From an uncultured Candidatus Saccharibacteria bacterium (lineage in GTDB: Bacteria > Patescibacteriota > Minisyncoccia > UBA6257 > UBA9933): 64,000 nt of DNA. The notes under the pieces are model-generated. The model was not told the DNA's origin, ran no database searches, and was given only the letters and a program-made list of their open reading frames with translations. Positions 1 to 40,988 of the stretch are shown piece by piece. The DNA is taken from NCBI GenBank assembly GCA_964642155.1, contig CAZXNT010000004.1, positions 2,040-66,039 of the forward strand. The letters are read 5' to 3'. The position numbers were made by a program, and so were the translations under genes. Numbering within the stretch: the stretch's first letter is position 1; each line of letters starts with the position of its first letter.

Positions 1-114
1 TTTAGGTAAAATGTTTATTAAAAATCGTCTCAAATCTTATTTAACGGGGTGCTCAATGTTGTAGATAAATTTATTTCGCTCAACATTGGGTTTCGCTTAT
101 AAATTTATACAACA

Positions 115-1302
115 TTGGCAATGACTATTTTAATTAAAAACACTCAACTTCTTGATGGTACGGGCAGGTCGGCGATAAAAGCCGATGTTTTGATAAAAAA
201 CGATAAAATTTCCGCCATCGGCAATTTCCCGAATTATAAAGCTGATGAAATTATTGACGCGATGGGCGCTTATTTAGCTCCGGGGTTTATTGATATTAAT
301 AATGAAAGCGACCATTCGTTGGAAATTTTTTCTAATGATTATCAGGAAAATATTTTAAAACAAGGAATTACTTCCGTTATCGGCGGACACGGGGGCTTTT
401 CTTTGGCGCCGCTTCTTTACGGCTCTTTGGAAGCGATTAAACCATGGGCGGATATAAGAAAAATTAATGTTGATTGGCATACTTTAACTGAATTTTTAAA
501 GACTTTTAAAACAAGAAAGCTTAATGTGAATTTTGGCACTTTTTTGGGGCATACAACCGTTCGCTTTGATATTATTCACGACGCGCATAAATTAATTTTT
601 CGCGATTTGACTCCAAACGAATCGGCGGTTTTGAATTTTGTTATGGGGAAAAATTTAAAAGCAGGAGCTTTCGGCATTTCCGTCGGTTTTGACCACTCTT
701 TGGCTTCGGAAGTGTCCTATTTTGAAATTAAAAAAATGGCGGAATTGGCCGTTAAAGTCGGCGCGCTTTTAAGTTATAATCTTAAAGACAATAAAGAAGG
801 AATCGTTGATTCCGTTAAAAAAGCGATTTTTTTGGCAAAAGAAACCGGAGTTAAAATTTTGATAAATAATTTTAAACCGTCTCTGGAAGCTTTTAATTTA
901 ATTGAAGAAAATTCCAGCAACGCTGATATTTGTTTTTGCGCGAATCTTGATGATAATTATTCCGGCGAATCGGTTAAAATGTTGCAAAGCGACAAAGCTC
1001 TTATTTCTTCCGGCTTGCCTGCGCAGGCAGGCGGCTTTGGAAAATTTTTGGAATTAGTTGAAAAGGACAAAATTATGACAATTGAAGAAGCAGTTAAAAA
1101 AATAACTTCTTTGCCGGCGGCGAAGCTTAAATTGGATAAAAGGGGAATTGTTCGGGAAGGGTATTTTGCTGATTTGGTTCTTTTCAGAATTGAAAATTCG
1201 GAAATTTCAGATGTTATTATTAACGGTAAAAGAGCGGTGAAAGAAGGGAAATTCCAAAATATTTTAGAGGGGAAGGCGTTGGTAAACGATAAATTTATAT
1301 GA
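115..1302 (+). CDS. Amidohydrolase-family protein (D-aminoacylase/dihydroorotase-like metal-dependent hydrolase)
   Basis: 395 aa ORF; N-terminal DVLIKNDKI...G.IDI.NESDHS pattern typical of amidohydrolase fold; overlaps the ftsW start by 4 nt. Confidence 0.5.
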   Translation: MAMTILIKNTQLLDGTGRSAIKADVLIKNDKISAIGNFPNYKADEIIDAMGAYLAPGFIDINNESDHSLEIFSNDYQENILKQGITSVIGGHGGFSLAPLLYGSLEAIKPWADIRKINVDWHTLTEFLKTFKTRKLNVNFGTFLGHTTVRFDIIHDAHKLIFRDLTPNESAVLNFVMGKNLKAGAFGISVGFDHSLASEVSYFEIKKMAELAVKVGALLSYNLKDNKEGIVDSVKKAIFLAKETGVKILINNFKPSLEAFNLIEENSSNADICFCANLDDNYSGESVKMLQSDKALISSGLPAQAGGFGKFLELVEKDKIMTIEEAVKKITSLPAAKLKLDKRGIVREGYFADLVLFRIENSEISDVIINGKRAVKEGKFQNILEGKALVNDKFI

Positions 1303-2396
1303 GAAAAGGACATCGGCCGGATTATATTTTTATCTCTTGTATTATTATATTGTCGGTTTTTGGCTTAGTGATTCTTTCCAGCGCTTCTTCGGATACGGGA
1401 AAAATAAAATTTAACGACACTTATTATTATCTTAAGCATCAGATAATTTACGGATTAAGTTTGGGCATCGTCGGTTTTTTAATCGCTTCCAATTTTTATT
1501 ATCAAAATTGGAAAAAAATCGCGGTTTACGCCTTACTTATCAATATCGTTCTTTTGCTTTTGGTTTTTACGCCATTGGGTTTTGCCCACAGGGGCGCGAG
1601 CCGTTGGTTGGATATCGGCTTTTTTTCATTTCAGCCGGCGGAGTTTTTAAAAATAACTTTTATCATTTATCTCGCCGCTTGGCTAAGTAACAGGAAATCC
1701 GGCCGCCAAAAAAGTTTTTTAAAAGGTTTTGTGCCGTTTATCGTTATTTCGGGAATTATAGGCGCGTTGGTTTTATTTCAGCCGGCGACAACGATTTTGA
1801 TAATCGTTATGGTTTCGGCTTTAATCGTCTATTTCGCGAGCGGATTAAAAATGTCGCATCTTTTTTTAATCGCGCTGTTGGGAATTCTCGCGCTTGTTTT
1901 CGTGATTTATGCGACTCCTTACCGCTATGAAAGAATTAAAAATTTTTTTATTGAAGATGAAGCTAAGGACGCCACCAGCCGTTATCAAATAAATCGGGCG
2001 CAAGAGGCCATTGGGAGCGGGGGATTATTCGGCGTCGGTTTTGGCAAATCAACCACGAAATTCAAATATCTTCCCGAGCCGATAGGAGATTCAATTTTTG
2101 CCGTGGTTGCGGAAGAATTGGGGTTTACGGGTTCGTTGTTTTTAATTTCCGTTTTCATACTTTTTTTTATAAGAGGAATTTTAATAGCCAAGAAGGCGAG
2201 CGATCAATTCGGGAAATTGGCGGTGATGGGGTTGGTTTCCGCTATTGCGATTCAAACATTTATTCATATCGGAGCCGTTTCCGGATTAGTTCCTTTAACA
2301 GGGGTGCCCTTGCCCTTTATCAGTTACGGCGGTACGGCTTTGGCGGTTTTTTTGACGATGAGCGGGATTATTGTTAATATATCAAAGTACACATGA
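1299..2396 (+). CDS. ftsW: FtsW/RodA/SpoVE family peptidoglycan glycosyltransferase
   Basis: 365 aa polytopic membrane protein; conserved GFGKSTTKFKYLPEPIGDSIFAVVAEELGF block; TGA stop overlaps murG ATG (dcw-type arrangement). Confidence 0.8.
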   Translation: MRKGHRPDYIFISCIIILSVFGLVILSSASSDTGKIKFNDTYYYLKHQIIYGLSLGIVGFLIASNFYYQNWKKIAVYALLINIVLLLLVFTPLGFAHRGASRWLDIGFFSFQPAEFLKITFIIYLAAWLSNRKSGRQKSFLKGFVPFIVISGIIGALVLFQPATTILIIVMVSALIVYFASGLKMSHLFLIALLGILALVFVIYATPYRYERIKNFFIEDEAKDATSRYQINRAQEAIGSGGLFGVGFGKSTTKFKYLPEPIGDSIFAVVAEELGFTGSLFLISVFILFFIRGILIAKKASDQFGKLAVMGLVSAIAIQTFIHIGAVSGLVPLTGVPLPFISYGGTALAVFLTMSGIIVNISKYT

Positions 2397-3565
2397 GAAT
2401 TTTATTCACCGGCGGCGGAACCGGCGGACATATTTATCCGATTTTAGCGGTTGTTGAAGAACTGCAAGCCTTTGCCGCGAAAAGAAACATATATATTGAT
2501 TTGCAATATCTCGGCGCTCCCGGAAATTTTCGCAAACTTTTTGTTTCCAACGGCGTTTCGGTTTCAAAAATATTATCCGCCAAATTACGGCGTTATTTTG
2601 ATTTGCGTAATTTTTTGGATTTTATTCTTTTCCCCATAAGTATTATTCAGGCGTTTTGGAAAGTTTTTTGGATTATGCCGGATGTTTTATTTTCCAAAGG
2701 CGGTCCGGGTTCGTTACCGGTTGTTATTGCCTGCAAATTTTATCAAATTCCCGTGATTGTCCATGATTCTGATTCAACAATCGGTTTAGCTAATAAATTA
2801 GCATTGTCTTTCGCGAGCCGTATTGCCGTTTCTTTTATTTCAACTGCCGAGGAAATTGTCGGAATGCAAAAAAACGCAAAAAAAGCCGAATCTTTTCGCG
2901 CCAAAATAGCGTTTGTCGGCAATCCAATCAGGCCTTCTCTTTTTAAAGGTGATATTATAGACAAACAGATGGCTAAAAAAATGCTTGGTTTTGAGTCGGA
3001 AAAACCCTTGATGCTGATTTTGGGCGGTTCGCAAGGTTCATCTACTATAAACGATTTTATGTTGAATATCGCCGGAGAATTGGTGAAAGATTGGCAAATT
3101 TTTCATCAAACCGGCATTGATAATTTTAACAGCGTTAAAAGTGAACTGGCGGTTGTCTTGAAAGGATTCGGCGAAGAGGAAAAATCACGATATAAAATTA
3201 TTCCTTATTTTGAAAATAATTTAAAAGACGCTTATTCGGCCGCTGATGTGGTAATTTCACGCGCTGGCAGTCTTTCAATTTTTGAAATCGCCACTTTCGG
3301 AAAGCCGTCAATTCTTATCCCTTTAAGCGAGAAAGTTGTGGGGGTTCATCAAATTAGAAACGCTTATGAATATGCGAAAACCGGAGCCGCCGTTGTTATT
3401 GAAGAAGAAAATCTTAAACCCCATATTTTTATGAGTCAATTAAGTAAAATTATCGGCGATGTTGATTTATTGAAAAAAATGTTTGAAGCCGCCCGCGGTT
3501 TTTCAAAACCCGACGCCGCTTCAAAAATCGCTGAAGAAATAATTCGTTTAAGCAATATGGTATAA
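2393..3565 (+). CDS. murG: UDP-N-acetylglucosamine--N-acetylmuramyl-(pentapeptide) pyrophosphoryl-undecaprenol N-acetylglucosamine transferase
   Basis: N-terminal FTGGGTGGHIYPILAV glycine-rich MurG signature; 390 aa; directly follows ftsW. Confidence 0.85.
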   Translation: MRILFTGGGTGGHIYPILAVVEELQAFAAKRNIYIDLQYLGAPGNFRKLFVSNGVSVSKILSAKLRRYFDLRNFLDFILFPISIIQAFWKVFWIMPDVLFSKGGPGSLPVVIACKFYQIPVIVHDSDSTIGLANKLALSFASRIAVSFISTAEEIVGMQKNAKKAESFRAKIAFVGNPIRPSLFKGDIIDKQMAKKMLGFESEKPLMLILGGSQGSSTINDFMLNIAGELVKDWQIFHQTGIDNFNSVKSELAVVLKGFGEEEKSRYKIIPYFENNLKDAYSAADVVISRAGSLSIFEIATFGKPSILIPLSEKVVGVHQIRNAYEYAKTGAAVVIEEENLKPHIFMSQLSKIIGDVDLLKKMFEAARGFSKPDAASKIAEEIIRLSNMV

Positions 3566-3572
3566 TTTAAAA

Positions 3573-4052
3573 ATGAACCCCGTTAGAAGTCTTAAAAAAT
3601 ATTTTTTACAAAAGGAGCCAAAGACGAAAGTCGGCTTCGCCTTTAAGATATTCAATAAAGATAATCAAGTATGGACTTCTAACGGGGTGAATTCATTGAT
3701 TTATCAAAAAAAACAAAAAGGACAAGCGATGCTTTTAGCGGTTCTATTGATTGGCACCAGTGTCTTAGTTATTACTTCTTTATCCGGTTATATGATGTTG
3801 CAAAGAATTAGAATGGGTTTTAATTTTGTTGATTCAACAAGGGCTATTTTTGCGGCTGACGCCGGAGTGGAATGCGAATTTTATAATTCTTTTAAGGGAG
3901 CGAGCGTGGATTGCGATGGTTTGGATTTTTCGGACCCATTAACAAAAGTTCAAACTATTATTGTGGCTGATGACAATGGCGTTCCGCAGTATATAAAATC
4001 AATCGGCACTTCTAATAAATCCAACCGCGCTTTCGTGGCGGAGTTTAAGTAA
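3573..4052 (+). CDS. Hypothetical membrane-anchored protein
   Basis: 159 aa ORF with one predicted TM helix (LLAVLLIGTSVLVITSL); no recognisable family. Confidence 0.35.
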   Translation: MNPVRSLKKYFLQKEPKTKVGFAFKIFNKDNQVWTSNGVNSLIYQKKQKGQAMLLAVLLIGTSVLVITSLSGYMMLQRIRMGFNFVDSTRAIFAADAGVECEFYNSFKGASVDCDGLDFSDPLTKVQTIIVADDNGVPQYIKSIGTSNKSNRAFVAEFK

Positions 4053-4105
4053 TTTTTTTAATTTTTTCTTGATTTTTATAAATAACACGAGTATATTGTT
4101 ATCGC

Positions 4106-4291
4106 GGGGTAGAAGAGTTGTGTCTCACAGTGTCTTTTAGACTCATAATTTTATTTCTATTCTTCGCCGAGATTTTCTGAAAATTTGGAGCATCTCGGCG
4201 GGGTAGAGGAACGGTACCTCGCAGTGTCTTATAGACTCATAATCCCCATTTCTGTTCTTCGCTGAAATTTTCTAAGTTGTTGGAGTATTTC
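4106..4291 (+). repeat. Two tandem degenerate copies (about 93-bp period) of the 5' half of tRNA-fMet, upstream of the intact gene
   Basis: gcggggtagaagag... (4106) and gcggggtagaggaacggtacctcg... (4199) repeat the acceptor/D-arm of the tRNA at 4292, each followed by the ctcataat(cccca) anticodon-loop remnant and diverged filler. Confidence 0.6.
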
Positions 4292-4362
4292 AGCGGGGTA
4301 GAGGAACGGTACCTCGGGGGGCTCATAATCCCCAGGAGCGGGTTCAATTCCCGCCCCCGCAA
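4292..4362 (+). tRNA. tRNA-fMet (CAT), initiator-type
   Basis: Manual cloverleaf: A1xA72 mismatch, D-stem GAGG/CCTC, anticodon loop CTCATAA, G-C rich anticodon stem, T-loop TTCAATT, 3' CCCCGCAAC as in E. coli tRNA-fMet. Confidence 0.75.
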
Positions 4363-4378
4363 CATTTTTAAAATTTTC

Positions 4379-4450
4379 GTCGGCGTAGCTCAGTGGTAGA
4401 GCGAAGGACTCATAAACCTTAGGTCGCAGGTCCGATTCCTGCCGCCGACA
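4379..4450 (+). tRNA. tRNA-Met or tRNA-Ile2 (CAT anticodon, elongator type)
   Basis: Manual fold: acceptor GTCGGCG/CGCCGAC, D-arm GCTC..GAGC, anticodon loop CTCATAA, T-arm GCAGG-TCCGATT-CCTGC. Confidence 0.7.
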
Positions 4451-4459
4451 CTGAAATTA

Positions 4460-4876
4460 ATGCGTAAACATTCCAAAAAATTTATAATTTTTTTATTAAT
4501 AATCATTACGATTGCCGGTTTTTTTTATATTTATTCGGCAATAAAAATGGAAAAAACCTATGCTTTTTTTAAGCCGTTAGAAGTATTGGGAACATTTGAA
4601 AACTTGCCGGTAGTAAAAGCGGCAACGGAATATGGTAAAAAAAGCGTTGACAAAATCGGAGAAAAAATAAAAAATCAAACAAGTGTGATTAATAATTCAG
4701 TTTCCAAAGCAACGGATAATTTTAAAAATAGCGCGTTTGAATTTGCCAAAGAAAACATAAATAGCGGTCTTAACGCCATGGGCAATGTTTTGGGAGTTGA
4801 TGAGAAATTGATTACTACAACCATTATCAGTACAAGTACAGTAAATACAATTAGCAATAAAGAGAATTGTAAATAA
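4460..4876 (+). CDS. Hypothetical N-terminally membrane-anchored protein
   Basis: 138 aa; N-terminal TM helix then polar domain; no family recognised. Confidence 0.35.
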   Translation: MRKHSKKFIIFLLIIITIAGFFYIYSAIKMEKTYAFFKPLEVLGTFENLPVVKAATEYGKKSVDKIGEKIKNQTSVINNSVSKATDNFKNSAFEFAKENINSGLNAMGNVLGVDEKLITTTIISTSTVNTISNKENCK

Positions 4877-4885
4877 TAAATAAAA

Positions 4886-5461
4886 ATGTCTCTGACTTAC
4901 AACGAATTAAAACCCGGAACTTTTATTATTTTTGAAGGACAGCCCTATGAAGTGCTGGAATTTGCGTTTTTGAGAATGCAACAGAGAAAACCGGTAAGCA
5001 AAACGAAATTGAAAAATTTGATAACCGGAAAAGTGAAAGAGCAAACCTTTCATCAAAGCGACATTTTGGAAGAAGCGGAACTTGAAAAGATGCCCTCGCG
5101 TTTTCTTTATGAAAGCAGGGGAGCTTATTGGTTTGACGAAGTCGGCAATCCAAAAAATCGTTTTTCTTTTGATAAAGAAACTTTTGGGGATTCGGTTGAT
5201 TTTTTAAAGCCGAATTTGGAAACAACAGCCGTGAAATTTGAAGGGAAAATCATCAATATAGAATTGCCGATTAAAGTCGCTTATAAGGTTGTGGAAGCTC
5301 CGCCGGCGATTAAAGGAGATACGGCGCAAGGCGGAAACAAGGCCGTGATTATTGAAACCGGCGCGAAAGTAAACACTCCGTTATTTATCAATAGCGGAGA
5401 CGTTGTTTTAGTGAATACTCAAACTGGCGAATATGTAGAGCGCGTTGAAAAAGGATTATAA
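4886..5461 (+). CDS. efp: Translation elongation factor P
   Basis: 191 aa; N-terminal NELKPGTFIIFEGQPYEVLEF and KPG loop typical of EF-P. Confidence 0.85.
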   Translation: MSLTYNELKPGTFIIFEGQPYEVLEFAFLRMQQRKPVSKTKLKNLITGKVKEQTFHQSDILEEAELEKMPSRFLYESRGAYWFDEVGNPKNRFSFDKETFGDSVDFLKPNLETTAVKFEGKIINIELPIKVAYKVVEAPPAIKGDTAQGGNKAVIIETGAKVNTPLFINSGDVVLVNTQTGEYVERVEKGL

Positions 5462-5860
5462 GGCGCAACCGCTTTCCTGTGAAAGTTTTTCAAGTGTTTG
5501 TTCTCCTTCAAATTTTTTGCCCTCAGGGGCTTGCCCTGAGTTTGTCGAAGGGAAAATCCAAGTCGGGTATCCTTCCACTCCTTTATCAATGCATAATTTA
5601 GTATTTTCCGGACATTCAATATAAGGAACATATTGAAATGAATTTCCGAAAAGTTTTTTCTGATTTTGACAATGGACGCACCATTCGGCGCCGTACATCG
5701 TGATATTTTTTTCCGCCAAACATTTGGCGAAATTGTCATATTGGCTTAGCGCGTTATTTTGCGACTTGTCTTTTTTAATCTGTAAAAAAACCAACACCGC
5801 AACAGCGATTATGGCAATAATACCAATACTAATAATAATTTTTGCGCTTTTGTTTAACAT
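5456..5860 (-). CDS. Thioredoxin-fold thiol:disulfide oxidoreductase, membrane-anchored (CxxC)
   Basis: 134 aa; N-terminal TM helix; WCVHC active-site motif; adjacent to CcdA-like gene. Confidence 0.55.
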   Translation of the reverse strand: MLNKSAKIIISIGIIAIIAVAVLVFLQIKKDKSQNNALSQYDNFAKCLAEKNITMYGAEWCVHCQNQKKLFGNSFQYVPYIECPENTKLCIDKGVEGYPTWIFPSTNSGQAPEGKKFEGEQTLEKLSQESGCAL

Positions 5861-5911
5861 ATTATTTTACAAAATAATTGAAGTCAGATTTGTTTTGAAG
5901 AACATCCCGCA

Positions 5912-5960
5912 GCCCCGACGGGCTTGGTCTGACCCCGCAAAGCGGGGGAAGCCGTCGGGG
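5912..5960. terminator. Nested GC-rich hairpin (probable intrinsic terminator downstream of the minus-strand gene 6035..6547)
   Basis: ccccgacgg...ccgtcgggg outer stem enclosing the recurrent ccccgcaaagcggggg hairpin. Confidence 0.45.
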
Positions 5961-6034
5961 CGAGGGCGAAGAAAATTTTATCGCTGGAATAAAATTATTC
6001 TGTTTCTGAAAGGCAAATCTGGCTGAAATAAAAC

Positions 6035-6547
6035 TTATTCATCGCAACAATTCACTAATTTATTTACAATATCTTCCGTTGTCCAGGCCTGCCCCGTATG
6101 CGGGGATTTTTCGTTTTTCACCTCATTTTTTAATTCGGGGATACTGATAAGTTTCAGTCGCAACGCCCAAAACAGTGAGTAAATTTTATACGCTTTGTCA
6201 AAAAAATTTTTAGCCTCTTCTTTTTTGCCGTCAGAATAAAGTTTCGTGCCGACTTCAATCAGGCGCATTGCGGTTGCGAGCAGATGTTTTGCCGCGCACC
6301 AAGTTTCGCCTTCATGCTTATCAATCATTTTCGCGAGCAGTTCTTTGCGCGTTTCCCTGATTTCGTTCATAAAATCAAAATATTCTTCTTTACCTGTTTT
6401 TTTAGCGGTGAAAAAGAAATGCTCTTCCAGACTGATTAAATTCATTATGGCGATGCTTAAATCTTCTTCGGTTGACAAGTCAAACTCGCCGCTTTTTTTA
6501 AGCTCTTGGATTTTTTCTATAAGTTTTTGAAATTTTTGTTCGTCCAT
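6035..6547 (-). CDS. Hypothetical cytoplasmic helical protein
   Basis: 170 aa ORF, charged/helical; no family recognised. Confidence 0.35.
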   Translation of the reverse strand: MDEQKFQKLIEKIQELKKSGEFDLSTEEDLSIAIMNLISLEEHFFFTAKKTGKEEYFDFMNEIRETRKELLAKMIDKHEGETWCAAKHLLATAMRLIEVGTKLYSDGKKEEAKNFFDKAYKIYSLFWALRLKLISIPELKNEVKNEKSPHTGQAWTTEDIVNKLVNCCDE

Positions 6548-6564
6548 ATATTTATTTTAACCGA

Positions 6565-7227
6565 TTATAAAAGAAAAATCACTATGCCTAAAATTATCAT
6601 TGCCAAACTGCTGATATAGCGCATTCCTTTCATATTTTCAGATTTCCATTTTTGGGTTTTTTCCAGAAGCGTTTTATTATTGGCGATTAAAAGTATGATT
6701 ATCAGTGGCAAAATGAAAACCAAATTGTAATAAATCAAATATCCGAGCCCCTTCCAAAAAGTCGCTTGGTCGTGCAAGAGGCCGAGAACCAGCAGATATG
6801 GGCCGCCGGTGCAAGGAAATTCACAAAGCCCGACAAATCCGCCGAGCAGGAAAGCCGTTGGCGCCGAACCTTTTTCCATAAGTTTCGCCATTGTTCTGTG
6901 TGAACCCTGAGGGATTTTCAGTTTAATCGGAAAATTCGGGAAAATCGCGCCGAGCAATTCAATAATTCCCCATATTATAAGAAGAGACGCGCCGACTTTT
7001 CCCATAAAATTAGGGATGTTGAAAATTTGCAAAGTTTGCAGAATTCCGAGGCCGATTAAAATATAAACAATAAAGATGCCGAAAATATAAAGCAGGCCGA
7101 TTTTCAAAATATTCAAACGGTCGCGGCCGAGAGTGAAAAGAAAGGCGATAGTCAGTATTAAAACGGAAAAAGCGCAGGGATTAACGCTGTCAACCAGAGC
7201 GGCGGTTGTGATAATTAGCAAAAGCAT
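6565..7227 (-). CDS. ccdA: Cytochrome c-type biogenesis/thiol-disulfide transporter CcdA (DsbD transmembrane domain family)
   Basis: 220 aa polytopic; conserved VDSVNPCA first-Cys motif and second Cys in CEFPCTGGPYL. Confidence 0.7.
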   Translation of the reverse strand: MLLLIITTAALVDSVNPCAFSVLILTIAFLFTLGRDRLNILKIGLLYIFGIFIVYILIGLGILQTLQIFNIPNFMGKVGASLLIIWGIIELLGAIFPNFPIKLKIPQGSHRTMAKLMEKGSAPTAFLLGGFVGLCEFPCTGGPYLLVLGLLHDQATFWKGLGYLIYYNLVFILPLIIILLIANNKTLLEKTQKWKSENMKGMRYISSLAMIILGIVIFLL

Positions 7228-7294
7228 AATTCTTAATTTTAATTGAGCGAAAACTTGAAGTCAAACGGATTTTTGTTTAGTATAAAAGCGGATT

Positions 7295-7365
7295 GGGCTT
7301 GTAGCTTAGTGGCAGAGCATCCGGTTTGCATCCGGAAGATAGGGGTTCGATTCCCCTCAAGTCCA
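7295..7365 (+). tRNA. tRNA-Ala (TGC)
   Basis: Manual fold: acceptor GGGCTTG/CAAGTCC with G3:U70 Ala identity pair, anticodon loop TTTGCAT. Confidence 0.8.
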
Positions 7366-7538
7366 AAGGAAAGGCGAGAGTTCGACCTGCCCCGTAATGT
7401 CCGCCAGAAGCGGACTATTTCGGGGTTCTCGCTTGGTCCAAAAGGTAGGGTGGGTGAGCGGTTTAAACCGCTGGTCTTGTTCCCGATTTGTATAAAATTT
7501 GTTAGAATTTTATCTACAAATCGCAATCCCGCTTAAAG
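7366..7538. other. Structured, relatively GC-rich spacer between tRNA-Ala and tRNA-Ser (nested hairpins; possible small RNA)
   Basis: gcgagag...ccccg-taatg-tccgc-cagaa-gcgga-ctattt-cgggg...ctctcgc nested stems; gagcggtttaaaccgctg hairpin; overlapping ORFs 7239..7526(-)/7243..7536(+) judged spurious. Confidence 0.3.
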
Positions 7539-7626
7539 CGGAAGGTTGGCAGAGCGGTCTAATGCGCCGCACTTGAAATGCGGTTGAGGAGAAATCCTCT
7601 CGGAGGTTCGAATCCTCCACCTTCCG
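7539..7626 (+). tRNA. tRNA-Ser (TGA)
   Basis: Manual fold: acceptor GGAAGGT/ACCTTCC, 3-bp D-stem, anticodon stem CCGCA/TGCGG loop CTTGAAA, long variable arm, T-arm GGAGG-TTCGAAT-CCTCC. Confidence 0.8.
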
Positions 7627-7629
7627 CTT

Positions 7630-7760
7630 TGTGCGGGAAAAAGCGTTATTGTGAGTTCTCCGCCTACGCGCCTCCTCCGCCGAAGCAACTTCGGCTGCGA
7701 AGGCCGGGCAAAGCTTCGGCGGATTGCTTTTGGTAGTAAAATCAAAGATTTTAACCAAAA
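7630..7760. ncRNA. GC-rich structured region downstream of tRNA-Ser (candidate small ncRNA; identity unknown)
   Basis: Perfect 9-bp stem ccgccgaag/cttcggcgg enclosing GNRA-like loops; GC far above local average; ORFs 7510..7758(-) and 7533..7745(-) judged spurious. Confidence 0.25.
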
Positions 7761-9600: not shown

Positions 9601-9739
9601 ACTAACGAAAACGCGGCGCTAATTTAGGGGCTTATGCAAAAATCCGCTTTTGGCGGATTTTTGTTTGTTAATATGATAAAATAAATTTATGAATCCCGCT
9701 TTAATCCCGTCGGCCAACAAAAAAATCAGGCAAATAACT

Positions 9740-9769
9740 CATTGTACAATTCCATAGAATTGTACAATG
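9740..9769. promoter_or_regulatory. Perfect 13-4-13 palindrome cattgtacaattc-cata-gaattgtacaatg (candidate ArsR-family operator)
   Basis: Exact inverted repeat 25 bp upstream of the ArsR-family gene at 9795; same sequence recurs at 18820 and a variant at 10071. Confidence 0.55.
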
Positions 9770-9794
9770 ATAAATTATCCTATAATATTATTAT

Positions 9795-10061
9795 ATGAAA
9801 AGATGGACTGTAATTTTTAGAGCTTTGGCCAATATTAACCGGCTAAAAATAATTAAAATGCTGACCGGTGGCCACAAGATGAATGTCGGCGATATTGCGG
9901 AGGATTTGAATATTTCTTTTAAAGCCACTTCTAACCACCTTGCCATACTTAAAAATCTGGATGTTTTGGATGCGCAAGGCGTTGAGGGGCATGTTTTTTA
10001 TTTTATTAATCCTCAAATGCCCAAAGATTTCCAAAAAATAATTGAGATTACCCTAAAGTAA
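9795..10061 (+). CDS. ArsR/SmtB-family winged-helix transcriptional regulator
   Basis: 88 aa; ALANINRLKIIKML...VGDIAEDLNISFKATSNHLAILKNLDVL HTH. Confidence 0.7.
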   Translation: MKRWTVIFRALANINRLKIIKMLTGGHKMNVGDIAEDLNISFKATSNHLAILKNLDVLDAQGVEGHVFYFINPQMPKDFQKIIEITLK

Positions 10062-10070
10062 TTATATAGT

Positions 10071-10100
10071 CATTGAACAATTCCATAGAATTGTTCAATG
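10071..10100. promoter_or_regulatory. Variant palindrome cattgaacaattc-cata-gaattgttcaatg downstream of the arsR-like gene
   Basis: Same architecture as 9740..9769 with a compensated t-to-a change in each half-site. Confidence 0.5.
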
Positions 10101-10189
10101 GATAATCAATAAAAAAATAGGCGAGTAAATTTATGTCACATAATCTGCCTTTTATATTTTTTTATGATTTTTTATGATATAATATTTTT

Positions 10190-10384
10190 ATGAAGCGTTT
10201 ATATAAAAGTCGCGAGAATAAGGTCTTTTGCGGGGTGATTGGCGGGTTGGGGGAGTATTTCGGCGTTGATGCGGTGATTTTGCGGGTCGGGTATGTTTTA
10301 CTTTCCATCTTTACCGGCATCGTGCCCGGGCTTATAGCGTATTTTGTTATCTGTCTCGTGGTGCCGAAAAAATTAGAGAAATAG
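10190..10384 (+). CDS. PspC-domain membrane protein
   Basis: 64 aa; LYKSRENKVFCGVIGGLGEYFGVD...TM helix matches the PspC domain. Confidence 0.6.
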   Translation: MKRLYKSRENKVFCGVIGGLGEYFGVDAVILRVGYVLLSIFTGIVPGLIAYFVICLVVPKKLEK

Positions 10385-10435
10385 ATTTTAGATTTATTGT
10401 CGGTTGTTTTTCTATTATTCACCTGTTTGTCCATG

Positions 10436-10461
10436 CTCTAATTCGCGCGAATAAGCGAATA
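10436..10461. repeat. Copy 1 of repeated motif ctctaattcgcgcgaataagcgaata (core palindrome attcgcgcgaat)
   Basis: Shares 25+ bp with copies at 10811, 11119 and 18689; ORF 10438..10629(-) that covers it judged spurious. Confidence 0.5.
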
Positions 10462-10519
10462 AGGAAAATCCAGCAACGGCAAAATAAAAAGGTCGAAGAA
10501 ATGGTTAAGAAATAAATTT

Positions 10520-10789
10520 ATGGCAATAATCAAAAAGAAAATTTGGCCGGAATATTTTGAGGCCGTAGTTTCTGGCAGGAAGAAATTTGAGCTCCGCTTG
10601 AATGATTTTGAGATTAATGAAGGCGACACGCTTTTACTTGAAGAATATGATCCAATAAAGAAAGAATATACCGGCAGAAGCGTGGAAAAGAAAGTCGGTT
10701 ATGTTTTTAAATTCAAACCAACTGAACTTCCTTTTTACTCAAAAGAAGATATTGAAAAAAACGGTCTTCAAATAATTTCTCTGGAGTAA
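10520..10789 (+). CDS. DUF3850/ASCH-like small protein
   Basis: 89 aa; IWPEYFEAVVSGRKKFELRLNDFEINEGDTLLLEEY matches the DUF3850 pattern. Confidence 0.5.
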   Translation: MAIIKKKIWPEYFEAVVSGRKKFELRLNDFEINEGDTLLLEEYDPIKKEYTGRSVEKKVGYVFKFKPTELPFYSKEDIEKNGLQIISLE

Positions 10790-10810
10790 TAAAACATTTA
10801 AAGCGAGTTA

Positions 10811-10852
10811 TTCTCTATGCTCTAATTCGCGCGAATAAGCGAATAGATGAAA
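10811..10852. repeat. Copy 2 of repeated motif ttctctatgctctaattcgcgcgaataagcgaatagatgaaa, just upstream of a tataat box and the second arsR-like gene
   Basis: Exact 38-bp identity with copy 3; located 20-60 bp upstream of the 10872 start. Confidence 0.55.
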
Positions 10853-10871
10853 TTCTTGCTATAATTTATTT

Positions 10872-11132
10872 ATGCGTAAATTGGAGAAAATTTTAAAAGC
10901 ATTGGCTAATCGGCGGCGGTTGGCGATTTTGAAATATCTGAAAGAAAACAAAGAAGCGCCGGTAGGGGAAATTACCCACGAAATTGATTTGTCATTTAAA
11001 TCAACATCAAAACATCTTGGCGTTTTGTCGGCGGTGGATATTATTGAAAAAGACCAGCGAAGTTTGCAAATGTTTTATAGATTATCCGATAATCAAGAGT
11101 CGGCGGTTAAACACATTATTTCTATGCTCTAA
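10872..11132 (+). CDS. ArsR/SmtB-family transcriptional regulator (second copy)
   Basis: 86 aa; LKALANRRRLAILKYL...VGEITHEIDLSFKSTSKHLGVL HTH. Confidence 0.65.
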   Translation: MRKLEKILKALANRRRLAILKYLKENKEAPVGEITHEIDLSFKSTSKHLGVLSAVDIIEKDQRSLQMFYRLSDNQESAVKHIISML

Positions 11133-11182
11133 TTCGCGCGAATAAGCGAATAGATGAAAATGACTAATTACTCAACAAAAAA
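11119..11182. repeat. Copy 3 of repeated motif (covers the last 4 codons of arsR-2 through the HAD gene start)
   Basis: tttctatgctctaattcgcgcgaataagcgaatagatgaaaatgactaattactcaacaaaaaa; about 60 bp near-identical to copy 4 at 18689. Confidence 0.55.
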
Positions 11183-11896
11183 ATGAGAACAAAACTGCTT
11201 ACTAAAACATATAAAAGGAAAGTAGCTGTATTTGATATAGACGGAACATTTTTTCGTTCAAGCCTTTTGATTGAACTTGTAGAAGTATTCGTGCAAAAAG
11301 GTATTTTTCCCAGTAAAACAAGTAAAATTTATGAACCAGCATATAAAAAATGGCGTGATAGAAAAGAATCTTACGAAAACTATATTACTTCTGTAATTAA
11401 AGCATTTGATAAAAATATAGATGGTGTTGATTGCGATAAATTCGTAGAAATTGCCGATAAAGTTGCAAGCGTTAATCAAAATCACATTTATCGTTACACG
11501 CGAGATCTCATAAAAGAGTTAAAAGATAAGGATTATTTTATTTTAGCCATATCAAATTCGCCTTGGGGAGTTTTAGAAAAGTTTTGTAAGAAAAATGGCT
11601 TTGATAAAGTTTATGGAAGATTTTATAAAGTTGATGACAACGGAAAATTAACTAATACTGTTGAGCACGAAAAACTAATTTCGGATAAATCTAAAATCTT
11701 GATGCGCGCTATAGAAAAAGAAAACCTGACATTAAAAGGATCTATCGGAGTTGGAGATACTGAATCAGACATTCCGTTTTTAAAAATAGTTGAGAAGCCA
11801 ATTTGTTTTAATCCGAACAAAAAACTCTACGATTACGCTAAAAGCAAGAAATGGAAAATAGTTGTTGAAAGAAAAGATATGATTTATCATATTTAA
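11183..11896 (+). CDS. HAD-superfamily hydrolase, subfamily IB (phosphoserine phosphatase-like)
   Basis: 237 aa; VAVFDIDGTFF motif I and GVGDTESDIPFL motif IV. Confidence 0.65.
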   Translation: MRTKLLTKTYKRKVAVFDIDGTFFRSSLLIELVEVFVQKGIFPSKTSKIYEPAYKKWRDRKESYENYITSVIKAFDKNIDGVDCDKFVEIADKVASVNQNHIYRYTRDLIKELKDKDYFILAISNSPWGVLEKFCKKNGFDKVYGRFYKVDDNGKLTNTVEHEKLISDKSKILMRAIEKENLTLKGSIGVGDTESDIPFLKIVEKPICFNPNKKLYDYAKSKKWKIVVERKDMIYHI

Positions 11897-18688: not shown

Positions 18689-18750
18689 TTGTCTCATCTC
18701 TAATTCGCGCGAATAGGCGAATAGATGAAAATGACTAACTACTCAACAAA
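18689..18750. repeat. Copy 4 of repeated motif, including a degraded arsR-2 3'-end-like stretch
   Basis: ttgtctcatctctaattcgcgcgaataggcgaatagatgaaaatgactaactactcaacaaa; followed by an imperfect hairpin and the 18814 palindrome. Confidence 0.55.
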
Positions 18751-18813
18751 CCCCAGTAGTAGAACGCAAGGCGTTCACTACGGGGCGAGAAAATTAGGCG
18801 ATAAATTAGGTTA

Positions 18814-18855
18814 TAAACTCATTGTACAATTCCATAGAATTGTACAATGAGTTTA
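18814..18855. promoter_or_regulatory. Extended 42-bp palindrome aaactcattgtacaattccatagaattgtacaatgagttt (third copy of the ArsR-type operator)
   Basis: Identical core to 9740..9769; lies about 180 bp upstream of the 19037-20978 operon. Confidence 0.55.
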
Positions 18856-19036
18856 TCCTGTCTGTTAAATTACACACCGCTTGCTATGGGGTAGGTAAAC
18901 TACGAGGCAGGCAAATTTATGAGAAAGTTAAATCAGGTAAAATTTGAGAAAATCGTGGGAGAGGGAATAAAAGCAATCCCGGAGTGGTAAAAGTTATCCA
19001 CAGGGATATTCGGCAATTTATGGTATAATTTAATTA

Positions 19037-19312
19037 ATGAGTAAAAACTTAAAAATTATAATAATTTTAGCAATAATCATTATTTTATCTCTAACCGGAT
19101 TTTTCGTTTGGAAGAAATTTTATCAAAAATCGCAAACCGAAAAAACAATAGAAAAAGCGGGCGAGGCCGCGGAAATTATCACCGAGAGCGCCACTCAGGG
19201 GGTTTTGCCTTTAATAAATTCCACGGCTAATCCTTATGAAAATGTTTCGGAAACCAATCCGGTTGAGAAGGCCAATCCCTTTAAAAATATAAAAACTAAC
19301 CCATTTGAGTAA
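19037..19312 (+). CDS. Small secreted/anchored hypothetical protein
   Basis: 91 aa; N-terminal hydrophobic helix; overlaps the next gene by 8 nt. Confidence 0.35.
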   Translation: MSKNLKIIIILAIIIILSLTGFFVWKKFYQKSQTEKTIEKAGEAAEIITESATQGVLPLINSTANPYENVSETNPVEKANPFKNIKTNPFE

Positions 19313-20978
19313 AAATAATATGAAAAATAAAAAACAATCTTTATTTTTATCGCTGGTGATTTTAATTTTTGGATTATCGGTGTCCGGCAGCATAATTTTT
19401 GCGCAAAATGATTTATCGGATAATAATATCCAATATCCGATAGTCGAGCTTGGCAGTTGTGAAAATAAAAATGATTGTAAAAAATATTGCGATAATTCGC
19501 AGAATTTTGACGCGTGCATCACTTTTGCCGAAAAAAATAATTTAATGCCGAAAGGAGAAATTGAAATCGCCAAAAAATTTATGGCAGGTGGCGTTAAAGG
19601 TCCGGGCGGGTGCGGGAATAAAAATGAATGCGAAACGTATTGCGACAATATTGATAAAATAAACGAATGTGTTTCTTTTGCCGAGAAAAATAATATTTTA
19701 CCGCCGAAAGAATTAGAAGAAGCCAAAAAAATAAAAGCGGCCATAGAAAAGGGAATTAAACCGCCGGCGTGCGGAAGCAAAAAGTCCTGCGATGTTTATT
19801 GCAGCCAATCCGAACATATGGAGGAATGTATTAGCTTTGCCGAAGTCGCCGGATTCATTCCGCCGAAAGAATTAGATGAAGCCAAAAAAGTTTTAGCAGC
19901 CGTTAAAAAAGGCATTAAGCCGCCGGCTTGCCGTGGAAAAGAGGAATGCGATATTTATTGTTCCGAAGAAAGTCATTTTGACGAGTGTATAGTTTTTGCC
20001 GAAGCTGCCGGTTTTATGCGGCCTGAAGAAGTGGAAATGGCGCGTAAAACAAAAGGCAAGGGTCCGGGTGGATGCAGAGGCAGAGAGGAATGCGACGCTT
20101 TTTGTCAAAGTGAATCAAATATGGAAATTTGCGCCAACTTTGCTTTGGAACACGGCTTAATGAAGCCGGAAGAAGTGAAAATGATGAGAAAGACCGGCGG
20201 TAAAAGTCCGGGTAATTGTAGAGGCAAAGAAAAATGCGAAAATTTTTGTAATAATTCAGATAATCAGGAAACTTGTTTTAATTTCGCCAAAGAACATAAT
20301 TTGATTCCTCAGGGAGAAATGGAAAAAATGAAGGAAGGAATGGGACAAATGAAAGAAAATTTTCGGATGGCGTCGCCGGAAATAAGCGAGTGTCTTAAAT
20401 CAAACGTTGGCGAAGAAGTTTTAAATAAAATACAAAGCGGGACATTTGCGCCACCGCGCGAACTTGGCGAAAAAATGAAAAATTGTTTTGAGAATTTCGC
20501 GCCTCAACGTCTTGATATTCCTCAACAACGTCTCGAGATGCCTTCTTTTGAGGGCGAGGGACAAAATTTTGAGAAAAGATTTGAAGGAACAATAGAAGAA
20601 TTAAAGAGAATGCCTCCTGCGGAAATGTTGTCACCGAATGGATTTATACCGTCTGATTATCGCCCAGAAGGCGCAATAGAGGGCAGAATGCCTCTTAATG
20701 AGTATATGAAACCGCCCGAAGGGGGAGGGTATATTCCGCAAATGTTTAAGCAGAACGAAGAAACGCGTCAATTTCAGCAATATCCATTGCAATATCAGCA
20801 AATGATGCCGCCATCTCAAGAAATACGGCAAATGATTCCGCCGCAAGAAATACAACAGATGCCGTTTCAACAAGTTCCGCAGAATATGCAGCAAACTCCG
20901 CCACTTCCTTCATCAATGAATAATCAAAAGCCGTTTGCTCAAATTCTTTATTTCTTTACCCGCTTATTAGGAAGATAA
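19305..20978 (+). CDS. Secreted cysteine-rich repeat protein (7 x 4-Cys modules, Q/P-rich C-terminus)
   Basis: 557 aa; signal peptide; seven about 40-aa repeats C-x5-6-C-x3-C-x7-9-C-x2-FA...P (28 Cys); low-complexity Q/P/M tail. Confidence 0.6.
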   Translation: MSKNNMKNKKQSLFLSLVILIFGLSVSGSIIFAQNDLSDNNIQYPIVELGSCENKNDCKKYCDNSQNFDACITFAEKNNLMPKGEIEIAKKFMAGGVKGPGGCGNKNECETYCDNIDKINECVSFAEKNNILPPKELEEAKKIKAAIEKGIKPPACGSKKSCDVYCSQSEHMEECISFAEVAGFIPPKELDEAKKVLAAVKKGIKPPACRGKEECDIYCSEESHFDECIVFAEAAGFMRPEEVEMARKTKGKGPGGCRGREECDAFCQSESNMEICANFALEHGLMKPEEVKMMRKTGGKSPGNCRGKEKCENFCNNSDNQETCFNFAKEHNLIPQGEMEKMKEGMGQMKENFRMASPEISECLKSNVGEEVLNKIQSGTFAPPRELGEKMKNCFENFAPQRLDIPQQRLEMPSFEGEGQNFEKRFEGTIEELKRMPPAEMLSPNGFIPSDYRPEGAIEGRMPLNEYMKPPEGGGYIPQMFKQNEETRQFQQYPLQYQQMMPPSQEIRQMIPPQEIQQMPFQQVPQNMQQTPPLPSSMNNQKPFAQILYFFTRLLGR

Positions 20979-28423: not shown

Positions 28424-29386
28424 ATGAAAAATTCATTTGAACAACCAACTTTAAAAAATTCAGAAGAACAAGACGTTTGTGAACACGGAAACCCGAAGGG
28501 TTTGTGTGAGGTTTGTGATGAGAAAAATAAAGTAGAAATCAAAAATGAAAAAATAGACTACAGTAATCAACTTCATTTAAAAAAAATATTAGAAAATCCA
28601 CAAGAGCCGATTGATTTTAAAAATTGCGGAGTCCATGAATTTAGAAAAATAATTTTTGGTACAAATTCTCGTTTTAGAGAAAGAGATGGGCGGGCGTTGC
28701 TTAATAGTTTTGGGACCAAAAAAGGGATTACGGAAAACATGATTGCTTTGCTGAATTTTGCCGGAATCGAAAGAGAGTATCTTGATTATAATAATACACT
28801 TCATTTAAAGGAAATATTGGGAAAATCCAAGGAAAATATTAATTTAAATATATGCGGAGTTAAAGAATTTAGAAAAATGGTTTTTGGTACCGGTTCCCGT
28901 TTCAAAGAAATAAATGGATATGTATTGCTTGATAATTTCGGAACCAAAAAACAAGATACGGAAAACATGATTGATTTGCTTAATTTTGCCGGAATAGAAC
29001 ATGAAAATGAAAAAACGGGGGATAAAAAAGAAGAAGTTTTAAAACAATCTCTTGAAAATTTTGTTCAAGAAATATCAAATGCGGAAACTCAAGATAAAAT
29101 GGCAAAAAAAATCCGGGAAATTATGGAACTTCTACCGGAAAATGCCTGTGATATATTGCTTAAATATCATCCGGAATACAAAGGACTTAATATTGGTTAT
29201 GTAAAAAGCGTAATCGCGGATTATTTGGGCGATTTTCTTTTAATCAGGAAACTATGGGAGATTAAGGATGTTGAAATAACAAAAGAACTTTTTTCCGAAG
29301 AACAATTTGCGGAAGCATTATTTTTGAAATTTAAGGATGCTAGCTTCAATTTTTTCCAAAGAGAAAAAAAACTAATCCGGAAATAA
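28424..29386 (+). CDS. Hypothetical protein with two tandem about 95-aa internal repeats; first gene of the SNF2 operon
   Basis: 320 aa; NTLHLKEILG..ICGVKEFRKMVFGTGSRFKE..GYVLLDNFGTKKQDTENMIDLLNFAGIE repeats residues 45-140. Confidence 0.4.
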   Translation: MKNSFEQPTLKNSEEQDVCEHGNPKGLCEVCDEKNKVEIKNEKIDYSNQLHLKKILENPQEPIDFKNCGVHEFRKIIFGTNSRFRERDGRALLNSFGTKKGITENMIALLNFAGIEREYLDYNNTLHLKEILGKSKENINLNICGVKEFRKMVFGTGSRFKEINGYVLLDNFGTKKQDTENMIDLLNFAGIEHENEKTGDKKEEVLKQSLENFVQEISNAETQDKMAKKIREIMELLPENACDILLKYHPEYKGLNIGYVKSVIADYLGDFLLIRKLWEIKDVEITKELFSEEQFAEALFLKFKDASFNFFQREKKLIRK

Positions 29387-38017: not shown

Positions 38018-38280
38018 GTGCTGTAATTATACACTTTGCGCGAACCTTTTTCGAGCGGAAAGACCAATGACTTCGCACGCTCCGCGTGAGTGGTGGCTCT
38101 GACCAAAATCGTACGCGCGGAGCGCGTGGTGAAGCGAACTCTGCGCGCCTCGTCCGCTCCCTTCGGTCGCGGGAGCAAAAACCAAAAATTTTCCTTCCTT
38201 TCTTTTAGATTCTCGGCGGGGGGTGTGGGGGGAGCCGACAAAAAATGGAAAGGAAATTTTTGGTTTTGCTTCGCCACTAC
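38018..38280. repeat. IR1-L: left copy of an about 265-bp inverted repeat
   Basis: Near-identical reverse complement at 40616..40881; internal 22-bp hairpin flanking a G6-TGT-G6 run; ORFs 38014..38277(-) and 38090..38299(+) are artefacts of the repeat. Confidence 0.85.
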
Positions 38281-40615: not shown

Positions 40616-40881
40616 GTAGCGGCGAAGCAAAACCAAAAATTTCCTTTCCATTTTTTGTCGGCTCCCCCCACACCCCCCGCCGAGAATCTAAAAGAAAGGA
40701 AGGAAAATTTTTGGTTTTTGCTCCCGCGACCGAAGGGAGCGGACGAGGCGCGCAGAGTTCGCTTCACCACGCGCTCCGCGCGTACGATTTTGGTCAGAGC
40801 CACCACTCACGCGGAGCGTGCGAAGTCATTGGTCTTTCCGCTCGAAAAAGGTTCGCGCAAAGTGTATAATTACAGCACCAT
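40616..40881. repeat. IR1-R: right (inverted) copy of the about 265-bp repeat
   Basis: Reverse complement of 38018..38280 with one indel at the outer end; ORFs 40576..40806(-) and 40613..40975(+) mirror the artefactual ORFs in IR1-L. Confidence 0.85.
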
Positions 40882-40972
40882 AAGTAACTTGTTCGGAAAT
40901 GACTGCTCCGCGCGGCGAGTACGCCGCGCTCCGCAGGGCAAAATCCGCTTTTGTTTTCGCCGTGAAATCCCA
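40875..40972. repeat. IR2-L: left copy of a 98-bp inverted repeat (overlaps the end of IR1-R by about 7 bp)
   Basis: gcaccataagtaacttgttcggaaatgactgctccgcgcggcgagtacgcc...gtgaaatccca; reverse complement at 42426..42523 with one mismatch. Confidence 0.85.
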
Positions 40973-40988
40973 TAATTCGCCCCAGCGT

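Follow-up and report, generated by a model that had tools for sequence, protein, structure and literature searches.

Two minimal ArsR/SmtB-type regulators of Patescibacteria and the predicted operators that bracket their genes

Two regulator genes and seven palindromic sites

We analyzed a 64-kb stretch of DNA, hereafter the window, from an uncultured Candidatus Saccharibacteria bacterium (contig CAZXNT010000004.1); site scans and feature positions refer to its coordinates. Its left part holds two short genes, arsR-1 and arsR-2, each bracketed by copies of its own type of palindromic site, A around arsR-1 and B around arsR-2. Comparison with related loci suggests, with a probability that we put at roughly 0.8, that two paralogous minimal repressors of the ArsR/SmtB family have A and B as their cognate operators.

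arsR-1 (9795–10061, + strand) encodes a winged-helix protein of 88 residues and arsR-2 (10872–11132, +) one of 86 residues, both of minimal ArsR/SmtB type. A first-pass annotation made from the sequence had assigned the two to the ArsR family, and the Pfam matches bear this out: HTH_5 (E 6.5e-10) for ArsR-1, and HTH_20 (9.9e-07) together with HTH_5 (3.5e-06) for ArsR-2. On the NCBIfam model NF033788, which has a cut-off of 55, ArsR-2 scores 63.3 and ArsR-1 falls just below at 54.7; profile searches against the PDB returned matches to CzrA, HlyU, SmtB, and NolR. The AlphaFold2 model of ArsR-1 (predicted local distance difference test score, pLDDT, 87) has helices at residues 2–24, 31–38, and 42–54, strands at 58–63 and 66–71, and a last helix at 77–87. 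This H-H-H-hairpin-H layout comprises the helices, wing, and C-terminal helix expected for ArsR/SmtB proteins, and the best Foldseek matches of the model are CzrA, HlyU, SmtB, and CadC, with TM scores of 0.71–0.75. The ArsR-2 model (pLDDT 70.9) is too low in confidence to be used, and that protein is assigned from profile evidence only. Two further assignments were rejected: the SdpR-family autorepressors (NCBIfam NF033789), for which the scores are 46.3 and 43.6 bits against a cut-off of 100, and a place in a defense system, since the PADLOC matches are limited to the generic HTH part of Csa3/CasR. An exact-protein look-up returned no record for the products of arsR-1, arsR-2, or the neighboring gene pspC.

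Neither window protein contains a cysteine, and none is conserved in the family alignments. In neither protein did we recognize an alpha3N CXC motif, the alpha5 Asp/His ligand set, or the cysteine pair of BigR/HlyU/SqrR, and the alpha5 ligand positions of CzrA align to Asn, Ser, and Gln. Metal or redox sensing, which the first-pass annotation had raised for these regulators, is therefore without sequence support, and effector recognition would not involve a classical metal or thiol site.

Palindrome A (13-4-13; core ACAATTC-N4-GAATTGT) occurs as the exact sequence CATTGTACAATTCCATAGAATTGTACAATG upstream of arsR-1 at 9740–9769 (A1; position weight matrix, PWM, score 43.1) and again at 18820–18849, within A3. 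A2 (10071–10100; PWM score 46.9) starts 10 nt past the arsR-1 stop codon and differs by two mirror-symmetric substitutions (TGAACA...TGTTCA). The bracketing of arsR-1 by an exact and a variant copy had been described correctly, as had the existence of the third copy; the extension of the latter, formerly read as 42 bp from 18814, has arms of 20 bp and spans 18813–18856. Among the relatives introduced below, the A consensus is cATTGaACAATTC-yATr-GAATTGTtCAATg.

Motif B (CTCTAATTCGCGCGAATAAGCGAATA) is exact at 10436, 10820, and 11127 and carries one mismatch at 18698. The full site is a 30-bp near-palindrome, tATTCtCTAATTCGC|GCGAATnnGnGAATa, readable as ATTC-N4-ATTC-GCGC-GAAT-N4-GAAT. B1 (10432–10461; PWM score 42.8) lies between pspC and a DUF3850 gene, B2 (10816–10845; exact motif, also found with the PWM) upstream of arsR-2, and B3 (11123–11152) over the arsR-2 stop codon (11130–11132). 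B4 (18694–18723), the copy with the mismatch, is supported by the motif, by repeat comparison, and by an independent contig. Both B3 and B4 continue into a 27-nt extension, so that the conserved units run to 11179 and 18750, respectively. All four copies had been noticed before, three of them (10811, 11119, and 18689) about 9 nt too far left, taking in an upstream ‘tctatg’ stretch that is itself part of the 30-bp site. B3 and B4 share a 53-nt repeat at 96% identity, and A1 and A3 share 48 nt at 90%.

Scanning the window with matrices built from the relatives recovered these three A and four B sites, all in two short regions, and nothing else above 8 bits; dinucleotide shuffles yielded 0 matches to palindrome A and likewise 0 to motif B. 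A −10-like hexamer, TAGAAT, occupies the center of A, and many B sites have it in their right arm. Because both motifs contain such hexamers and always lie in intergenic DNA, they could in principle have nothing to do with the ArsR genes and be either chance repeats or generic elements of promoters or intergenic DNA. Against this stand the empty shuffles, the confinement of only seven sites in 64 kb to two short regions, and the almost exclusive association with a cognate gene family, which leave that explanation next to no chance; the motifs are not ubiquitous, as a generic promoter element would be. An Rfam scan of the whole window found 10 tRNAs only and nothing at the A or B sites.

Association and covariation of the sites with two protein families

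The relatives comprise 160 loci, labeled with L-numbers: 80 metagenome loci for ArsR-1 and 80 loci from species-representative genomes for ArsR-2, the latter including Brennerbacteria, Niyogibacteria, Harrisonbacteria, Liptonbacteria, Doudnabacteria, Uhrbacteria, Moranbacteria, and Kerfeldbacteria. The protein collection held 329 relatives of ArsR-1 and 888 of ArsR-2; among the matches listed, identities are 67–95% and 56–98%, respectively, and the named relatives are metagenome-assembled genomes (MAGs) of Patescibacteria or the Parcubacteria group, e.g., Sungbacteria, Wolfebacteria, and Paceibacterota. Among the loci compared, arsR-1 and arsR-2 are adjacent only in the window and in L115.

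At a PWM score of at least 22, with matrices trained on the same loci as were counted, A sites number 179 in the ArsR-1 loci (503 kb), 1 in the ArsR-2 loci (789 kb), and 0 in shuffled loci, and B sites number 12, 168, and 0 in the same three sets. ArsR-1 genes have an upstream site within 150 nt in 72/77 cases and a downstream one in 70/78, and 64/73 are bracketed; the corresponding fractions for ArsR-2 are 67/83, 65/82, and 61/82. Sites cluster within a few kilobases of the regulators, often one per intergenic gap, and tandem A/B pairs like B4–A3 recur in L081, L095, L111, and L115. By these comparisons, A and B are conserved as the presumptive sites of two Patescibacteria-wide minimal ArsR/SmtB families. 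L095 holds the densest array seen (7 A and 3 B sites in 7.7 kb, at 1–7714), in which A sites lie about 1 kb apart and the sites separate short, partly degenerate open reading frames (ORFs), either RNase H-like or without a known counterpart.

Every B copy has ‘tctatgctctaa’ on its left. This sequence forms the left arm of the operator and incidentally codes for the conserved C-terminus ...SLL*; in 24 ArsR-2 loci the TAA stop runs directly into TTCGCGCGAA, exactly as at B3. The same arm accompanies the B site of L081, which has no arsR-2 gene nearby. What had been taken at B4 for a diverged 3′ end of arsR-2 is this conserved arm.

The most telling pattern concerns the start of the recognition helix, i.e., the residues after Ser41, of which positions 43/44 were compared with the center of the site. 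In the ArsR-2 family, proteins with F-K-A at this point go with ATTC-GCGC-GAAT (39 site types) and those with F-R-S with ATTC-GTAC-GAAT (7/7), while F-T-A is found with the center GCTC, F-Q-A with GATC, and F-K-S with a mixture of GCGC, GCAC, GTAC, and GTGC. In the ArsR-1 family, F-K-A accompanies ATTC...GAAT, F-A-A accompanies ATTA-CATG-TAAT, and F-N-A accompanies cores of AATCA or AATCC. The two rules meet in L034, where an FRS gene has GTAC sites on both sides and its LKA paralogue has a GCGC site upstream. The full recognition helix reads ISFKATSNHL in the ArsR-1 family and LSFKATSKHL in the ArsR-2 consensus (LSFKSTSKHL in the window protein), and the element ATTC-N4-GAAT common to both operators fits these near-identical helices (SFKATS[N/K]HL). 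The covariation is what direct readout by residues 43/44 would predict, and it is the strongest evidence that the sites are operators.

The position of the sites relative to promoters agrees with this reading upstream of the regulators. In the arsR-1 promoter, whose −10 box (TATAAT, 9781–9786, +, read from the sequence) precedes the ATG by 8 nt, the −35 region is covered by the right arm of A1; in the arsR-2 promoter, with an extended −10, TGcTATAAT, at 10857–10865 (+; TG 10857–10858, TATAAT 10860–10865) ahead of the ATG at 10872, it is covered by the right arm of B2. This placement of A1 and B2 over the genes’ own apparent promoters is the classical layout of an autorepressor. The arsR-1 arrangement (‘cctataatattattatATG’) is also present in L081–L087, and a TATAAT-like hexamer with at most one mismatch starts 11 nt from the site center, next to the right arm or partly within it, in 37 of the 64 distinct upstream A sites as against just 6/61 downstream A sites. 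As the two −10 boxes lie 6–8 nt before the start codons, the arsR-1 and arsR-2 mRNAs are probably leaderless. Several starts in the window (9781–9795, 10175–10190, 10857–10872, and 19021–19037) have TATAAT, often with an upstream TG, 6–8 nt before the start and no Shine-Dalgarno sequence, which suggests that leaderless mRNAs are common in this genome.

Downstream sites are placed otherwise. They usually lie 5–40 nt before the next gene start with no separate −10, as B1 and B3 do. Such a placement points to a roadblock within an operon or else to a site that contains the promoter. DNA looping between the bracketing sites was considered and rejected, since the distances of 292–455 bp between them show no periodicity of 10–11.5 bp.

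The arms of the A sites carry a second signal. At the variable outer positions 4 and 6 of the 30-mer, 52/60 downstream A sites keep complementarity with the mirror position, where 26 and 29 are expected; over all mirrored outer positions there are 103 double-change cells against 43 expected, a value reached by 0/500 shuffles, and slid controls collapse. At 14/53 loci the upstream and downstream sites differ at outer positions while the downstream site is still symmetric, A1/A2 being an example. This covariation, the ability of the two sites of one locus to differ while each stays symmetric, and the downstream position 12–75 nt past the stop codon could mean that the palindromes are mainly nucleic-acid structures, either hairpins that the regulator mRNA forms at its 3′ end, serving as terminator, stabilizer, or processing site, or DNA cruciforms; the predicted A-site hairpins are indeed strong (−16 to −29 kcal/mol, z −4.8 to −9.1), and A3 is flagged as terminator-like. 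We nevertheless consider this very unlikely as the main role. The core ACAATTC/GAATTGT is nearly invariant in sequence across lineages and not merely paired, upstream sites escape transcription, being placed at the −10 box or before it, and variation in the sites follows the residues of the recognition helix; as RNA, B sites have no significant structure and fold no better than shuffles (z about −1.3). Mismatches within arms are as often G–T (13) as A–C (14), without the strand-specific wobble signal of RNA, so that the symmetry looks like a property of the DNA and not of RNA pairing. An intrinsic terminator, with a G+C-rich stem and a U-tract, was rejected specifically: A2 lacks a T-run and goes unflagged on the + strand, the A stems are A+T-rich, and only A3, with a weak tail, is flagged at all. 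The arm symmetry itself may stem from the formation of cruciforms or hairpins, from correction of one arm by the other, or from a symmetric protein that reads DNA shape.

Neighboring genes, a probable degraded module, and possible mobility

Between arsR-1 and arsR-2 lie pspC (10190–10384, +), encoding a PspC-domain membrane protein (Pfam PspC, E 1.7e-20) and preceded by an extended −10, TGaTATAAT (10175–10183, +, read from the sequence), and the DUF3850/ASCH-domain gene (10520–10789, +; Pfam DUF3850, E 2.9e-20), which has no visible −10 of its own and is probably co-transcribed with pspC through B1. Directly downstream of B3 is a gene for a HAD-family hydrolase (11183–11896, +; Pfam HAD, E 3.9e-14). 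Operator B3 itself ends, at 11152, 31 nt before this gene, and with its extension, common to B4 and L081, the unit ends 4 nt before the gene start; a leader peptide in the extension (MKMTNYSTKK) was rejected, as its C-termini are not conserved between copies. At 10105–10177, after A2, only a conserved translation-start module, ‘aaaaaataggcgagtaaatttATG’, and a 14-codon stub are left of what is another decayed gene start; in relatives the same module precedes real genes such as Zincin_1 (L081 1400–1430; L097 ~5480).

Across the loci, the 140 non-redundant site-adjacent genes fall into 133 Pfam families, of which the commonest are NUDIX (5), GIY-YIG (4), AAA (4), HAD (3), the MGMT DNA-binding domain (3), and Zincin_1 (3), with DUF559, P-type ATPases, RNase H, and tRNA synthetases among the others. 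Clustering of the ORFs beside sites gave only the regulators and spurious antisense ORFs as large clusters. On present comparisons, there is no conserved regulon among these genes, and the small regulon once proposed for the window finds no counterpart in so heterogeneous a set; because the genes are functionally heterogeneous, no effector can be inferred from them. The family counts, taken without a background set, give at most a hint of a DNA-repair or house-cleaning theme. The most frequent non-regulator neighbor cluster (8 instances in 6 loci) is a protein of 550–620 residues with an N-terminal CxxC...CxxC motif and no Pfam match. It occurs as tandem paralogues in L111 (6336–11673) and L115 (7269–10933), directly 3′ of the regulators’ downstream sites, and also in L018, L019, L022, and L049.

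B4 and A3 lie beyond about 7.5 kb of unrelated genes, which follow the HAD region and encode an ABC-F ATPase, a flavoprotein, a VanY-type peptidase, a glycogen synthase, and a GH57 enzyme. B4 with its 27-nt extension (18694–18750) is identical to the corresponding stretch of L081, where it is followed by ‘aaaattaggcgg’, an upstream A site, and arsR-1. The window keeps the same order with a small GC-rich hairpin element (CCCCAGTAGTAG...CTACGGGG; 18751–18789, +; predicted fold −21.6 kcal/mol, z −5.8) inserted, and in L099 a hairpin-‘aaaaattaggcga’-A unit stands twice upstream of its arsR-1. On its left, A3 has a context matching that of the upstream sites in L081 and L099; on its right, it shows homology to the sequence flanking the downstream A sites in L090 and L099. 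Further right lies the remnant of a Zincin_1 metallopeptidase gene (18919–18990, +), a 23-codon stub, MRKLNQVKFEKIVGEGIKAIPEW*, that is identical at 17/22 positions to the start of the L084 Zincin_1 gene (E 3e-10); in L084, L090, and L097 (by Pfam in L084 and L097) Zincin_1 follows arsR-1 and its downstream A site. An upstream-type left flank joined to a downstream-type right flank is the product expected from recombination between palindromes bracketing a lost second arsR-1. B4–A3 is thus most likely, as judged from these homologies, the relic of a second B–A–arsR-1–A–Zincin_1 module whose regulator gene is missing, plausibly through such recombination, and whose target gene is truncated, which fits the duplicated-then-degraded regulator locus that the first-pass annotation had offered as one of its options. 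Short-k Logan contigs, which are independent assemblies, confirm both flanks: they match GH57–B4–hairpin–A3 and A3–remnant–19037 base for base, each breaking inside palindrome A3, as expected for a 30–35-nt repeat. The genome is represented in the sequencing runs SRR13723393–96.

The other option had been that these sites control the operon to their right. That two-gene operon, encoding a 91-residue membrane protein and a 557-residue Cys-rich repeat protein, starts at 19037 and has its own extended −10, TGgTATAAT (19021–19029; TG 19021–19022, TATAAT 19024–19029; whole unit 19021–20978, +). Since this promoter lies about 190 nt from the center of A3, with the Zincin_1 stub in between, control of 19037–20978 by A3 or B4 is doubtful.

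The hairpin element (35–40 nt; CCCCAGTAGTAG..loop..CTACGGGG followed by CARG), present once in the window, behaves like a miniature insertion. Further copies lie at L036 ~4980, L107 (− strand) ~4339, L090 5370, L099 1618 and ~1749, L021 3745, and L114 122, and none at the equivalent point of L081. In L099 and the window it forms a repeated unit with AAAAATTAGGCGA and an A site, in that order, and B operators in L036 and L107 are interrupted by it precisely in the middle (TTCG|CGCG). Two pairs of direct repeats, 11123–11179/18694–18750 (53 nt, 96%) and 9723–9770/18803–18850 (48 nt, 90%), flank segments of 7.5 kb and 9 kb with the HAD-to-GH57 genes, which recombination would delete or circularize; public short-k assemblies break exactly at A3.

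Such features raise the possibility that a site, a small winged-helix gene, and a second site form a mobile or recombining cassette, in which the palindromes would be recombination or insertion substrates, loosely comparable to cassette boundaries or to the REP/RAYT systems discussed below, and the extra copies in the window footprints of movement. Homology between the window and distant loci starts at ~9739–9740 and ends at ~10099–10100, the outer edges of A1 and A2, and the flanking genes vary from locus to locus (the 133 families among 140 genes noted above). Some genomes hold several copies (L120 and L121 share a contig, L097 and L016 have tandem copies, and four MAGs have two loci each), the solo A3 fits deletion between bracketing repeats, B3 and B4 are 53-nt direct repeats around 7.5 kb, and the hairpin element sits at B-site centers in L036 and L107. 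On the other side, the module is accompanied by neither a transposase nor a recombinase, and the one recombinase in the window lies 20 kb away; no target-site duplications were seen; and sharp homology edges are also expected from selection on gene and operators alone. Viral contigs in IMG/VR hold single core matches at chance level, with PWM scores of at most 26.8 against 42–47 for true sites, and no arsR homologues, on which grounds carriage by phages was rejected. An integron-like array of small genes alternating with palindromes was rejected as well, since each type of site keeps its sequence and goes with a single protein family, and since there was no integrase among the neighbors examined, which did not take in every neighboring ORF. 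As an account of the sites in its own right, the cassette is distinctly unlikely; being compatible with an operator function and not opposed to it, it is a possible overlay on that function and not an alternative.

A broader speculation, which we regard as improbable though worth stating, is that operator-bracketed minimal ArsR genes are self-contained regulator cassettes that duplicate, recombine, and decay in accessory islands of Patescibacteria, seeding regulated promoters before unrelated genes, and that a process dependent on DNA structure (cruciform or hairpin formation, arm-to-arm correction), and not protein contacts alone, keeps the symmetry of the palindromes, including the co-varying outer arms. 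If true, the window would hold a double cassette that is intact, another cassette that has decayed, and direct repeats ready to bring about the loss of 7.5–9 kb.

Elsewhere in the window, perfect 263-nt inverted repeats (38018–38280 and 40616–40878) flank a gene for a 585-residue DUF5667/DKNYY secreted protein (38567–40324, −). It is adjoined by a large serine recombinase gene (40899–42662, +; Resolvase, Recombinase, and Zn ribbon domains) that abuts tRNA-Leu and tRNA-Cys and is itself bracketed by a 121-nt inverted repeat (93% complementary; 40875–40995 and 42403–42523); the region looks like an integrated element or an invertible segment. Duplications at 4104–4316 and 28537–28992 involve a tRNA-Met region (repeat families D8 and D18) and, in tandem, 228 nt of a coding region (73% identity).

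Predicted regulation and comparison with known systems

Sequence comparison reveals three regularities: site–protein association, family-specific across the 160 loci; overlap with promoters; and protein–DNA covariation. Together they favor the view, put forward in outline by the first-pass annotation, that the two site types act as operators of the two regulators; binding, repression, stoichiometry, roadblock action, and an effector are predictions from them. A dimer of ArsR-1, or a pair of dimers, would bind the 30-bp palindrome A (aTTGaACAATTC-N4-GAATTGTtCAAt) and at A1 would cover its own −35 region, leading to self-repression. A2, just past the arsR-1 stop codon, would be a second binding site, serving as a roadblock, a cooperative site, or the operator of the downstream gene. 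ArsR-2 would likewise bind the 30-bp site B, its overlap with the arsR-2 promoter at B2 allowing autoregulation, and from B1 and B3 it may gate the downstream gene by roadblock or promoter occlusion.

Several points weigh against this scheme. The operator assignment is a prediction from sequence comparison, and the organisms are uncultivated. PWMs were trained and counted on the same loci, although exact-pattern counts give the same picture. The covariation comes from few independent clades, and the FRS/GTAC group may be a single evolutionary event. Most downstream sites do not overlap a recognizable −10, and the spacing between upstream and downstream sites lacks helical phasing, so that the second site may serve in any of several ways. 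A simple model of homodimer binding does not predict the co-variation of the outer arms. Finally, the site-adjacent genes share no function, and no effector-binding residues can be named.

Patescibacteria, also known as the candidate phyla radiation (CPR), are uncultivated and have few transcription factors, and we know of no experimentally characterized regulon from them. Two families, each with a sharply defined predicted operator, together with a specificity rule relating residues 43/44 to the center of the site, make regulation in this group testable in vitro with heterologous protein. With them, thousands of MAGs could also be annotated for promoters, regulated genes, and probable leaderless transcripts, and they offer naturally orthogonal repressor/operator pairs. 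A full-text literature search that included the motif strings found nothing on these proteins or sites, and both families and their sites seem to be undescribed.

In winged-helix fold and profile membership, the window proteins resemble the ArsR/SmtB autorepressors (CzrA, SmtB, and CadC, and the non-metal HlyU, BigR, NolR, and SdpR), with which they also share a palindromic operator of ~28–30 bp over the regulator’s own promoter; the half-sites of ATTC/GAAT and TGAACA type resemble the smt and czr operator repeats. Unlike the solved members, they are only 86–88 residues long, starting where residues 14–28 of those proteins align, and unlike the sensors of the family they have no cysteine and neither an alpha3N nor an alpha5 ligand set. 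A second operator right after or overlapping the stop codon in ~80–90% of loci, and two paralogous families with related but distinct sites across many lineages of Patescibacteria, also set them apart from known ArsR/SmtB systems.

Two other kinds of system share the layout in part. A gene bracketed by a short palindrome that recurs nearby recalls repetitive extragenic palindromes and their associated tyrosine transposases (REP/RAYT, or REPtrons), but the bracketed gene here encodes a winged-helix DNA binder and not an HUH Y1 tyrosine transposase, the copies are few and local (3–4 per 64 kb), and the sites overlap promoters and co-vary with a recognition helix; with no HUH Y1 transposase bracketed and no dispersed many-copy repeats in 64 kb, membership in that class was rejected. 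Near-identical copies beside unrelated genes (B3 and B4 with their extensions, the flanks of A1 and A3, and also in L081) recall propagated, or ‘mobile’, promoters; unlike those, the repeated unit here is defined by a putative repressor operator and travels with or near the repressor gene. In kind, the system is a known one, the autoregulated ArsR-type repressor; what is new lies in the two families and their unusual bracketed layout, and not in a new principle.

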